NCBI GenBank assembly: GCA_964523015.1
Contig: CAZFXN010000008.1
Location: forward strand, 708-64,707
Direction: 5' to 3'
Length of the DNA: 64,000 bases
DNA from: an uncultured Bdellovibrionales bacterium
Lineage (GTDB): Bacteria; Bdellovibrionota_C; UBA2361; J135
Shown piece after piece: positions 60,001 to 63,000 of the stretch. Made by a program: the position numbers. How positions within the stretch are numbered: the stretch's first letter is position 1; every line of letters begins with the position of its first letter.

Positions 60001-63000
60001 AATCACACATGAAAGCAAAAAAAGCTCAGGATGAGGGACGGTTTAAGAAAAGTCTCTGTGCTGTAAATTACAAAGATGAAGCAGGACAGGAAAAAATATT
60101 AGACATGGATGATAACATTAGACCTGAAACAACTGTCACAACTCTTTCCGCATTAAAAACTGTGTTTAAAGAGGATGGTGTTATCACTGCTGGAAATGCT
60201 TCTGCGATCGTTGATGGTGCTGCTGCTATACTATTGGCAAATAGTACCACTGCAAAAGAAATGAATCTTAAACCACGAGCAAGAATTGTCTCGATGGCTG
60301 CAATCGGATCTGATCCAAAAATAATGTTAACTGGTCCTGTAGCAGCGTCCCAAAAAGCACTAAAACTTGCTGGCTTAACTGCTGATAAAATTGATGTCTG
60401 GGAAATTAACGAGGCGTTTGCGCCCGTGCCAATATTTACAATTCGTGGGCTAGAGATTGATCCATCAAAAGTAAATGTTAATGGTGGAGGTATTGCTCTT
60501 GGTCACCCTCTTGGCGCAACCGGTGCTATGCTTATTGGCACTGCACTTGATGAACTTGAGCGAACCGATAAGCGATATGGTTTGATTACAATGTGCATAG
60601 GGCTAGGTATGGGAATAGCAACTATTATAGAGAGAGCCTAAAGAGCTTAAACTTTAACTAAAAATAGTTTTAAGCATATATTGATTATGTTTTTTATTAT
60701 TTTTTGTTAATTCGACCTATTGAACTATAATCTCTAGCTAAAGACACTTTTAATAACGGTAGAGCTTGTCCACTAAAGCGTAACATCTGATGGCTTTGTT
60801 TAGCTTTCCTATGTTCCGCTTCTGGTTGTTCCAGAGGTTGAATACACATCCTGCTTGACACCATTGAATCCGCGGCGCGTCGCTCCATCATCGCTCCAAT
60901 CACCCCGAACGCCTTGCTCAAAACAAGGAGAAGACAGAATTCGGATGTCCATGTCCCACGCGGATCTATTGTACTCTTGGGATCCAACTCCAAGAGGAGA
61001 AACGTCTACACCTCATCGTCGTATTCAAATCGATGATGAAACTCTGCGTGACGGCCTGCAAGCCGCTTATGTGCAGAGAGCACCGACAGTAGAGGAACGC
61101 CTCCAACTGGTTCGACACATGACAAGCCTTGGGGTTGATACATTCAATGTTGGGTTGCCGGTTACCGGACCCAACGTTGCAATGATCACCGCCCTGCTCA
61201 AAGAAGTCGACGTTGAGGGTCTTCAGATCGAAGCGAACGTGGCCTGCCGCACAGTCGTTTCAGATATCGAACCAGTTGCTGGAATCGTTCAAGCAACTGG
61301 TCGTCCGGTAGAGGTCTGTGCCTTTATCGGAAGCTCCACCATCCGTCACTACGCAGAAGGATGGGATTGGCAGAGGATCCTCACCTCCATTCGAGACGCG
61401 GTCTCGTTTGGTGTCGGAGAGAAGCTCAACGTTTCTTTCGTCACCGAAGATACGGCCCGGGCACACCCGGACCGGCTCTACGAGATGTTCGATGTGGCGG
61501 TGGAGGCCGGGGCAACTCGACTGATCCTCTGTGACACTGTTGGGAGTGCAAACCCGGCAACTGTCACAAAGCTGGTCGAAAGCATCCTCAGTCTTATCGC
61601 CTGGAAGGGTTGGCATCACATCGAGATCGACTGGCATGGTCACAACGATCGCGGACTCGGTCTGATCAACGCACTGACAGCAGTAGCAGCGGGAGTGAAT
61701 CGCATTCACACCACTGCGCTCGGTGTCGGAGAGCGTGCAGGCAACGTGCCGACGGAGCTGTTCCTTGTGAACATGCTTCTGGAAAAGATGGATGGTCGAG
61801 ATCTGAAAGATCTGCCGAACTACGTTCGGTATGCTTCAGAGATCTTGGGGTTGCCGATCCCGGTCAACTATCCGGGATTCGGTTCAGGCGTGTTCACCAC
61901 TCAAACCGGTGTGCACGCTGCAGCAGTCGAGAAAGCACGAAAGACTGGGGACACCTGGTTGACCGATTCGGTCTACTCAGGTGTTCCTGCTGGAGTCATC
62001 GGTCGACGTCAAGATGTCGTAGTCGGGCCCATGTCGGGCAAGTCGAACGTCACTGGGTTCTGTGAGGCGAACGGATTGATCATCCCTTCAACTGAACAGA
62101 TCTCTGAGATCTTGGCTCGAGCGCGCTCAACTGGTCGGATCTTGAGCATGGATGAGGTTGGTTCTTTTCTGCGGGTTCCCGCCTGGGTTCATGCCTGACA
62201 GAAAAGATCGAAGGTTCAGCGGACAAGCCACAAGAGGAGGCAGCTTAACCGCTGTCTCCTCTTTTTTTTGCCTCATTCTTCATCTGAATTCTCAGATTCG
62301 TAATCTTTTCGAAATTTAGATTTATCTTTCTTATTTATTTTTTTCTCTTCAGATCGACTAACTAAAACAACCATCTCCCCTTTTAAACCAGCGCGTTCTT
62401 TAATAGTCGCATAAAGATCTTTTGAATTGCCCCGCAAAATCTCTTCGTATGTTTTTGTTAACTCCCTTACAATTACTATTTCTCGATCCGGTGCATGCTC
62501 AGCTAACTCTTGAAATAATTTTTCTATCTTATGGGTTGATTCGTAAATCACCGAAGTACAATTAGATTCTAAAATTGAAAGAATCCGCTTTGTTCTCTTT
62601 GCTCCCTTAGGTGGTAAAAATCCCTCAAAGGTAAATCGATCTGTTGGCAGTCCTGAAATTGATAACGCACCGATTACAGCACTAGGCCCAGGCACAGTTG
62701 AAACTTTAATCCCCGCATCATGGCAAGCTCTTACAATTCTATATCCAGGATCGCTGATACACGGAGTGCCTGCATCAGTTACAAGAGCAACAACTTCGCC
62801 TTCTTTTAAAAGTTCAATTACCTTATCAACACGCCCGGCCTCATTATGATCGTGATAGCTTATTAATCTTTTCTTTATTCCGATCTCTTGGAGTAACATT
62901 CCAGTTCGCCGGGTATCCTCACATAAAATAACCGACGCCTCAGCCAACACTGTCCGTGCCCTCTCAGAGAGATCCCCCCTATTCCCAATCGCCGTCGCCA

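Follow-up and report, generated by a model that had tools for sequence, protein, structure and literature searches.

The window analysed here is a 64,000-nucleotide (nt) stretch of contig CAZFXN010000008.1 (assembly GCA_964523015.1) from an uncultured Bdellovibrionales bacterium, and our analysis concerns one of its genes, located between the genes for a thiolase and for the 16S rRNA methyltransferase RsmI and encoding a short synthase related to LeuA and to homocitrate synthase (HCS). According to our analysis, this gene forms a sharply delimited island of GC-rich DNA, belongs to a large and separate clade of enzymes which is functionally uncharacterised, and was probably acquired horizontally. 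The features of the locus are listed below, where GC3 denotes the GC content at third codon positions.

59490 to 60641, + strand: thiolase, acetyl-CoA C-acyltransferase (Thiolase_N/C; TIGR01930, 434 bits versus 240); GC 0.413, GC3 0.258; synteny anchor.
60704 to 60731, + strand: sigma-70-like promoter match TTGTTA-16-TATAAT (10 of 12 consensus positions), in AT-rich intergenic DNA 5' of the unit; a putative promoter, by consensus match only.
60764 to 60777, + strand: left arm of an imperfect inverted repeat, GCTTGTCCACTAAA, 14 nt, pairing with 62215 to 62228 (86% complementary).
60800 to 60858, + strand: 5' leader element, comprising a block (60800 to 60828), an 8-bp hairpin (60818 to 60825 with 60831 to 60838) and an upstream open reading frame (uORF) of 15 codons (60811 to 60858), MFRFWLFQRLNTHPA followed by a stop.
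60870 to 62261, no strand: GC-rich segment, from the two-breakpoint fit and sliding windows.
60927 to 60932, + strand: Shine-Dalgarno-like AAGGAG (direct reading), 12 nt 5' of ATG 60945.
60945 to 62198, + strand: coding sequence of the LeuA/HCS-like DRE-TIM synthase (PF00682), 417 amino acids from ATG 60945 or 415 from ATG 60951.
62215 to 62228, + strand: block of the 3' untranslated region, TTCAGCGGACAAGC, conserved with the sister locus L174 (described below) and forming the right arm of the inverted repeat.
62232 to 62271, + strand: intrinsic terminator separating the synthase gene from rsmI, which is convergent with it; 13-bp GC stem (62232 to 62263) with the loop TTAACC, then a T-run.
62273 to 63013, − strand: rsmI, 16S rRNA (cytidine1402-2'-O)-methyltransferase (TIGR00096, 225 bits versus 168); GC 0.402, GC3 0.304.

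A maximum-likelihood fit with two breakpoints placed the island at 60870 to 62261 (1,392 bp), with a GC content of 0.552 inside versus 0.394 outside. Compared with equal-sized windows elsewhere in the 64 kb (mean 0.400, sd 0.018, maximum 0.452), the island reaches z = 8.4. In 300-bp sliding windows, the GC content passes from 0.36–0.43 to 0.52–0.57 across approximately 60.85 to 62.25 kb and then to 0.34–0.44, and all other 1-kb bins of the window have values of at most 0.448. A preliminary description of this DNA, made by eye, had claimed an abrupt switch from AT-rich flanks to a GC-rich segment spanning precisely one gene and its GC-stem terminator, and the computation bears out both points, since the fitted segment holds one intact gene (60945/60951 to 62198), approximately 75 bp of leader and the terminator. 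Both flanking genes are native in composition, and the contig therefore reverts to host sequence past the island.

The synthase gene has a GC content of 0.550, versus 0.402 for the window, and a GC3 of 0.556, versus 0.245 to 0.412 in the 45 other open reading frames (ORFs) of the window; its GC content at the first, second and third codon positions is 0.63, 0.46 and 0.56. The codon-similarity index, trained on the other window genes, is 0.561 for the synthase gene versus 0.721 ± 0.021 (z = −7.5), with CTG/CTC, GTC, CCG, ACC and CGN in excess. The segment is thus compositionally foreign, as had been supposed. The codon usage is deviant, and CGN codons are enriched as expected, but the gene is not rich in GGC, which accounts for 4 of its 38 Gly codons, and GCC is enriched only mildly. 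Amino-acid composition was rejected as the cause of the high GC content, because GC3 is high as well and because the copies in Marine Group II archaea match the GC content of their hosts.

With regard to the gene model, the mechanically listed start TTG 60855 lies too far 5', and the alignment of homologues points to ATG 60945 or ATG 60951, the latter being the start of the database version of the protein, P0001. The ORFs at 61260 to 61709 (−), 61610 to 62065 (+) and 60697 to 60993 (−) were discarded as by-products, the first two lying within the real gene and the third across the leader; none of these has a counterpart in L174 outside the frame of the real gene.

Pfam detects PF00682 (HMGL-like) as the sole domain of the protein, at residues 27 to 283 (142.6 bits versus a cut-off of 29 bits, E = 1.9e-41). 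The allosteric/dimerisation domain of LeuA, PF08502, was not detected by Pfam, and the protein ends at residue 417, in agreement with the earlier description of a short synthase devoid of the long LeuA regulatory domain. The three DRE-TIM-type motifs named there were all located in the protein, namely RDGLQ at residues 35 to 39, HGHNDRG at 231 to 237 and GVGERAGN at 260 to 267. The DRE-TIM signature and the HxH metal ligands (R35-D36, E168-D169, H231 and H233) are invariant in the family and align with PDB homologues. The hallmarks of Claisen-condensation-like enzymes, G262-E-R-A-G-N267 and G322-V-H324, are present, the DT motif is retained as D197-T198, and all family-invariant residues are intact. 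The AlphaFold model (pLDDT 84.8) superposes over 387 to 407 alignment columns on the homocitrate synthase SaHCS (6KTQ) without its RAM domain, with a TM score of 0.80, and on methylthioalkylmalate (MAM) synthase, with a TM score of 0.79; the architecture is therefore that of a barrel with helical subdomains and without the regulatory domain. The closest solved structures are 22 to 28% identical and comprise SaHCS 6KTQ, MAM synthase 6E1J, the isopropylmalate synthase (IPMS) NmIPMS 3RMJ, TtHCS 2ZTJ, SpHCS 3IVS and LiCMS 3BLE.

When we compared the protein with NCBIfam, 22 families were matched, every one far under its curated cut-off. The scores were 174 versus 463 bits for TIGR02660 (nifV) and 162 versus 414 for TIGR02146 (LysS) among the HCS models, 173 versus 517 for NF002085 and 139 versus 599 for TIGR00973 among the IPMS models, and 115 versus 450 for TIGR00977 and 80 versus 950 for NF042433 among the citramalate synthase models. 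Membership among IPMS, HCS or CimA is thus ruled out by the curated cut-offs (174 versus 463 bits at best). Within the DRE-TIM metallolyases, the protein falls in the Claisen-condensation branch, as a member lacking the regulatory domain. The earlier proposal of a homocitrate-, citramalate- or alkylmalate-type synthase therefore holds at the level of the superfamily, but the identity of homocitrate, citramalate or isopropylmalate synthase is not upheld by curated criteria.

Homologues were searched for among 5.8 billion proteins, HMMER being run exhaustively over 1.84 billion cluster representatives. The sole identical protein is P0001, on one NCBI contig, and the best non-self homologue is 53% identical. 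At E ≤ 1e-30, HMMER delimits a family of at least 351 clusters (at 50% identity), mostly 400 to 430 amino acids long and aligning end to end. Its named hosts are Planctomycetota, Eisenbacteria, Acidobacteriota, NC10/Methylomirabilota, Gemmatimonadales (Gemmatimonadota), a "Deltaproteobacteria" metagenome-assembled genome (MAG) and Poseidoniaceae (Marine Group II archaea), and the proteins nearest to the window gene product, 47 to 53% identical, come from Planctomycetota, Eisenbacteria and other contigs. The clade is recognised by an N-terminal DLIYDWN segment, by DDETLRDGLQ, with Leu versus the Glu of LeuA, NifV and one type of Re-citrate synthase (Re-CS), by [D/N][V/I]GLP versus E-x-G-x-P elsewhere, by FVTEDT and DWHGHxDRG, and by TGVHAAAVxKA versus H-x-SGIHxDG elsewhere, together with a short insertion before VYSGVPA.

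The window protein is 23 to 29% identical to IPMS, NifV, citramalate synthase and both confirmed Re-CS types, the reference sequences being those of Table S1 of PMC12016533, which were machine-read and may contain small errors. In neighbour-joining (NJ) trees, a long branch splits the whole clade from these references, and membership in either Re-CS clade is ruled out by the identities and the tree. The window synthase therefore belongs to a large, separate and functionally uncharacterised clade, and our literature search found no paper on this LeuA/HCS-like group. Database labels on its named members always read "2-isopropylmalate synthase" or "LeuA family protein". Since clade members fail every curated model and carry an altered active-site signature, the annotation as 2-isopropylmalate synthase is probably wrong or at best unproven. 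The analysis thus brings to notice a large clade of short LeuA/HCS-like enzymes which is mis- or under-annotated.

LeuA itself (EC 2.3.3.13; N. meningitidis 3RMJ and M. tuberculosis 1SR9) has in common with the window protein the TIM-barrel fold followed by helical subdomains and the catalytic and metal motifs RD, ED, DT, HxH, GERAGN and G-x-H. However, the identity is approximately 26%, the window protein is without the C-terminal leucine-binding regulatory domain, and its motifs RDGLQ, [D/N]VGLP, FVTED and TGVHAAAV stand in place of RDGEQ, EAGFP, EFSAED and ESGIHQDGV. Homocitrate synthase (NifV/LysS; 6KTQ, 2ZTJ and 3IVS) provides the best match in both sequence and structure (6KTQ, E = 1e-33, TM 0.80, 28% identity over 387 columns), and its overall length is similar if the RAM domain is not counted. 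The (R)-citramalate synthase CimA (L. interrogans 3BLE; TIGR00977) belongs to the same superfamily, with the same catalytic set and a hydrophobic residue in the position of Tyr144, which precedes the catalytic Glu by two residues, but it is 22 to 24% identical and has a regulatory domain which the window protein lacks; the citramalate synthase of H. modesticaldum branches apart from the window family in the NJ tree. The MAM synthase of B. juncea (6E1J), the second-best structure match, is a natural LeuA-derived synthase in which the regulatory domain was lost. It is, however, a plant enzyme with 24% identity which keeps RDGEQ, and a long-chain substrate is not indicated for the window protein.

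In a bootstrapped NJ tree, 191 of 200 replicates grouped the window protein with P0123, P0305, P0306, P0307 and P0308 (47 to 48% identity). The sister protein P0123, 48% identical to the window protein, is encoded by L174, a 34-kb Logan contig of SRR14271375, where positions 7800 to 9275 also form a sharp one-gene GC island (gene GC 0.574, GC3 0.627 versus 0.26 to 0.39 in 12 neighbours; locus GC 0.416). The window and L174 loci have no other gene in common. The third codon positions of the two genes show an identity of 0.36 versus 0.26 expected from composition, and identical residues use the same codon in 78 cases versus 66.8 expected; synonymous sites are therefore near saturation.

Homology extends into the noncoding flanks of the two genes. 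At the 5' side, window 60800 to 60828 aligns with L174 7848 to 7875 with a score of 31 versus 17.9 ± 2.3 for shuffles, and in the core 21 of the 23 bases are identical. The 8-bp hairpin of the window leader, GCUUCUGG/CCAGAGGU (−15.6 kcal/mol, z = −3.5), recurs in L174 as GCCUCUGG/CCAGAGGU, a stem which is the same except for one pair (C-G in place of U-G). The loops measure 5 nt in the window and 20 nt in L174, thus differing by 15. Each locus has a uORF, exactly 15 codons long, which opens with a conserved CTATG (MFRFWLFQRLNTHPA for the window, MLRLWLNLERDLQRF for L174), and neither uORF is preceded by an evident Shine-Dalgarno sequence. The whole leader element, with block, hairpin and uORF, occupies 7848 to 7905 in L174, and the L174 gene has AGGAAG at the place equivalent to AAGGAG in the window. 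At the 3' side, window 62215 to 62270 aligns with L174 9221 to 9273 with a score of 24 versus 14 ± 2.1 for shuffles, one of which reached 27. This block consists of a GCGGACAA core followed by the terminator, which stands at the same place in L174 with a different stem and a retained CTTAA loop. Inverted repeats with a GTCCGC/GCGGAC core bracket both genes (60764 to 60777 with 62215 to 62228 in the window; 7809 to 7819 with 9219 to 9229 in L174), although they are short and each singly lies within chance expectation.

Noncoding blocks shared by two GC-island copies which are 48% identical and stand in unrelated contexts suggest a conserved regulatory leader. The leader appears to be a regulatory element under selection, and with two sequences only this is to be taken as a lead. 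It could be a leader peptide/attenuator or an operator, and it could hint at the metabolite to which the enzyme responds. Neither leader has a match in Rfam at E ≤ 10, no match at gathering score was found in the whole window, and viral contigs yielded neither the leader motif nor a relative of the synthase gene.

To place the island in its lineage, we used the thiolase as anchor. Among its best 15 genome matches (59 to 75% identity), the majority bear the label Bdellovibrionota, Bdellovibrionales or "delta proteobacterium", and most have the gene order Lnt, OmpA-like gene, thiolase of the window; its metagenome matches reach 71% identity. This order is kept in approximately 20 Bdellovibrionota loci from genomes and metagenomes, none of which (59 to 75% thiolase identity, downstream regions unconserved) has a LeuA-like gene, rsmI or a HigBA-like pair within 6 kb; the synthase gene thus does not belong to the conserved neighbourhood of the thiolase in this lineage. 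The regions 3' of the thiolase in these relatives share nothing with the window, only three relatives are alike there, and rsmI does not lie 3' of the thiolase. The island sits at a synteny breakpoint, or variable spot. Presence of the gene with the same composition and synteny across the lineage, which the preliminary description had held to speak against a recent acquisition, was not observed in these related loci. No true empty site was seen among them either, and both the recent date and the insertion between thiolase and rsmI proposed there are to be regarded as conjectural.

The window carries two further features around this spot. At 58544 to 59213 (−), between the OmpA-like gene and the thiolase, lies a HigB/HigA-like toxin-antitoxin pair (Gp49/DUF891 toxin, HI1420-type antidote) of native composition; because all related loci examined lack the pair there, it represents, besides the island, the second insertion at this variable spot. 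At 63121 to 64000 (+), divergent from rsmI and running off the end of the window, is an AAA_14/DUF4143 ATPase gene, of a type that is often accessory.

The composition of homologues elsewhere shows how the family behaves in different hosts. Homologues of the Planctomycetota and Eisenbacteria have a GC content of 0.67 to 0.71 and a GC3 of 0.91 to 0.98 in loci of 69 to 74% GC, the Marine Group II copy (L090) has a GC content of 0.468 and a GC3 of 0.41 in a locus of 0.459, and P0122, of a near lineage (L175), is encoded by a gene with a GC content of 0.562 and a GC3 of 0.58 in a locus of 0.508 whose neighbours have a GC3 of 0.49 to 0.57. The family therefore adapts to the GC content of the host genome, and the GC3 excess of the window gene is not a family property. 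We consider it likely that the synthase gene was acquired horizontally by a Bdellovibrionota genome of approximately 40% GC as an intact expression unit with a single gene, approximately 1.47 kb long. The transferred unit would extend from approximately 60800 to 62270, practically the coordinates proposed earlier, and would comprise leader, coding sequence and terminator. The donor would be a lineage of this protein clade that has so far escaped sampling, and the GC content of its genome was probably moderate, at approximately 50 to 57%. The high-GC donor expected beforehand is retained as one option, in view of the GC3 of 0.91 to 0.98 in Planctomycetota and Eisenbacteria, but not as the sole one, since the 51%-GC L175, to which its copy of the gene is native, matches: this gene has 0.63, 0.47 and 0.58 GC at the three codon positions, almost equal to the values of the window gene. 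A donor of approximately 50 to 57% GC with little amelioration since the transfer is thus no worse an explanation than a donor of very high GC followed by partial decay. Since synonymous sites are near saturation, most of the divergence between the window and L174 genes probably took place outside low-GC hosts and was followed by separate transfers. The event itself is ordinary, as uptake of single metabolic genes is routine in bacteria.

Several observations weigh against this interpretation. There is no tRNA in the 64 kb, no integrase or transposase among the neighbour genes, and no flanking direct repeat or target-site duplication. No donor or near-identical copy was found in public data, so that the direction and age of the transfer are conjectural. 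The closest host relatives are distant (at most 75% thiolase identity), so that an older acquisition with loss elsewhere is possible. The sister gene is apparently syntenic in two related organisms, and GC-richness can therefore persist for some time. Moreover, P0135, a member of the wider subclade, is labelled "Deltaproteobacteria bacterium", and part of the clade may be resident in related phyla.

The last of these points lead to an explanation which we regard as unlikely, namely that the gene is a long-term vertical resident of low-GC bacteria, shared with the L174 host and kept GC-rich by gene-specific selection or mutation bias. The sister gene indeed shows the same GC contrast in a contig of approximately 41% GC and has homologous 5' and 3' flanks. 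It also looks syntenic in two organisms, since a neighbour gene in L174 has only one homologue among the proteins searched, the 78% identical P0421, on the contig that carries P0305 (87% identical); the label of P0135 fits as well. However, at 48% identity and with nearly saturated synonymous sites, GC3 should have relaxed to that of the host, as it did in Marine Group II. In addition, the window and L174 contexts share nothing else, the gene is missing near the thiolase in the approximately 20 relatives among the Bdellovibrionota, and CTG, GTC and CCG are not the preferred codons of the host.

Single-gene islets and mobile insertion cassettes resemble the window unit in carrying one cargo gene of foreign composition in a variable intergenic spot, with short inverted repeats near the ends, but the window unit has neither terminal repeats of convincing length nor a target-site duplication, an integrase or a tRNA. 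A non-autonomous cassette (a mobile insertion cassette, or a miniature inverted-repeat transposable element with cargo), whose repeat cores and subterminal hairpins would be ends for a transposase acting in trans, seems very doubtful to us. It would account for the GTCC[A/G]C ... GCGGAC cores around the gene in both loci, for the hairpins near both ends, for flanks conserved despite a saturated coding sequence and for two copies in unrelated contexts. Yet the repeats are imperfect, 11 to 14 nt long and in the range of chance (34 to 54 inverted pairs per 2 kb), there are no target-site duplications, no second copy in the window and none in viral contigs, and the 3' block runs past the right repeat into an ordinary terminator. 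In a more far-reaching version, which we deem improbable, the unit of approximately 1.47 kb would be a self-contained spreading cassette made of a new cis-regulatory leader, the gene, a conserved terminator block and inverted-repeat cores, with a cargo of new substrate specificity, e.g., a third origin of a citrate- or malate-type synthase. If this were true, the gene would be useful alone in a predatory bacterium without the branched-chain amino-acid pathway, and the window gene would be the founding studied member of its clade. Finally, an assembly chimera or contaminant, conceivable for a single MAG contig record of 67,359 bp, is highly improbable because native-composition genes lie on both sides of two intergenic junctions, where a chimera would normally continue to the contig end, and because the independent assembly L174 has the same architecture with homologous flanks.

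Returning to the horizontally acquired synthase, we considered its possible reaction. From the chemistry of the family, Asp36, His231 and His233 would be the ligands of a divalent metal, a 2-oxo acid would bind to this metal and to Arg35, and Glu168 together with His324 of the C-terminal subdomain would enolise acetyl-CoA, the predicted products being a 2-substituted malate and CoA. Because the feedback domain is absent, this Claisen condensation of acetyl-CoA with a 2-oxo acid would proceed without allosteric control by the end product.

As to the 2-oxo acid, Arg163 and Ser165 of S. pombe HCS bind 2-oxoglutarate at its distal (C5) carboxylate, while Glu167 serves as catalytic base. In the profile alignment to 3IVS, this Glu167 aligns with Glu168 of the window protein, and the Arg163/Ser165 pair (R-x-S-x-E, strand 5) is replaced by Ser164/Val166 in the window protein and by Met/Lys and Val in the family. 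These equivalent positions argue against a homocitrate synthase, as far as can be judged from the alignment. Owing to Ser164/Val166 at the carboxylate positions and to the change of RDGEQ to RDGLQ, we tentatively favour a small uncharged 2-oxo acid, with citramalate- or alkylmalate-type chemistry, at slightly less than an even chance. A dicarboxylic substrate, e.g., oxaloacetate or 2-oxoglutarate, seems rather unlikely, and the remainder falls to something else. It counts against the favoured substrate that the assignment is built on alignment positions alone. As a functional clue, the nine homologue neighbourhoods are inconsistent. In Planctomycetota-type loci, genes for an S26 peptidase, an ECF sigma factor and either aspartate kinase or MgtE lie near the homologue; Eisenbacteria-type loci have the order thiolase, (MFS), homologue, TPR protein, with leuB next in one of them; in the Marine Group II locus, gyrA stands beside the homologue with sucCD approximately 3 kb off; and in one further lineage glutamate dehydrogenase is near.

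In the Eisenbacteria-type loci L084 (5669 to 10525) and L086 (4283 to 9384), the homologue follows the thiolase, as in the window, and overlaps the start of the TPR gene, after which leuB (431 bits versus a 393-bit cut-off) is found in L084. The recurrence of a thiolase 5' of family members in the window and in Eisenbacteria may be due to chance. Approximately 8 kb 5' of the island, at 47261 to 53079, the window carries a 2-oxo-acid dehydrogenase operon (lpd, a lipB-like gene, a fused E1 alpha/beta of 682 amino acids and E2), and together with the thiolase this complex makes the neighbourhood of the island one that produces acetyl- or acyl-CoA. A lone acetyl-CoA-condensing enzyme directly 3' of a thiolase in Bdellovibrionota raises a testable question about acetyl-CoA use.

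Re-citrate synthases (of the C. kluyveri/S. aciditrophicus and H. modesticaldum/D. mccartyi types) are LeuA/HCS-like stand-alone genes, often mis-annotated as IPMS or HCS. Some of them, like the window protein, lack the Glu of RDGEQ (RDGVQ in D. mccartyi; FRDQ..., as printed, in the C. kluyveri type), but they are 23 to 29% identical to it and a long branch lies between. In this superfamily, Re-citrate synthase has evolved on at least two occasions (PMC12016533). The window enzyme might be a replacement in central metabolism, e.g., a Re-type citrate or malate synthase of a third, independent origin, and not part of an amino-acid pathway; we judge this improbable. A role in central metabolism would explain how one gene alone could be useful, given that the gene arrived alone and that leuB, leuCD and ilv genes were not found in the 64-kb window. 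The lack of the Glu of RDGEQ in two of the confirmed Re-CS types and the presence of sucCD, glutamate dehydrogenase or aspartate kinase near some family members point the same way. It is opposed by the low identity to both Re-CS clades and the separate branch, by the absence from the window protein of the Arg of the clostridial type (PRCHxED), and by the disagreement among neighbourhoods, an Eisenbacteria homologue being two genes from leuB.

Away from the island, the window contains further features. A large cluster of exopolysaccharide/O-antigen type at 11327 to 31036 includes a sugar transferase, GT1, GT2 and GT4 glycosyltransferases, Wzz, a Wzy_C-GH123-like fusion, an SLBB export protein, a polysaccharide deacetylase and GNAT acetyltransferases. 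At 1407 to 2914 (−), a HipA-type kinase toxin (HipA_C and Couple_hipA) is encoded beside an 83-amino-acid ORF, which is probably a HipB-like antitoxin, as judged from the sequence. The ORF at 36558 to 41987 (−) encodes 1,809 amino acids with the lowest GC3 of the window (0.245) and has no Pfam match except for a sub-threshold DUF6861, and a small stand-alone HNH endonuclease ORF of 162 amino acids lies at 43185 to 43673 (−), adjoining a gene with a BPL_N domain.

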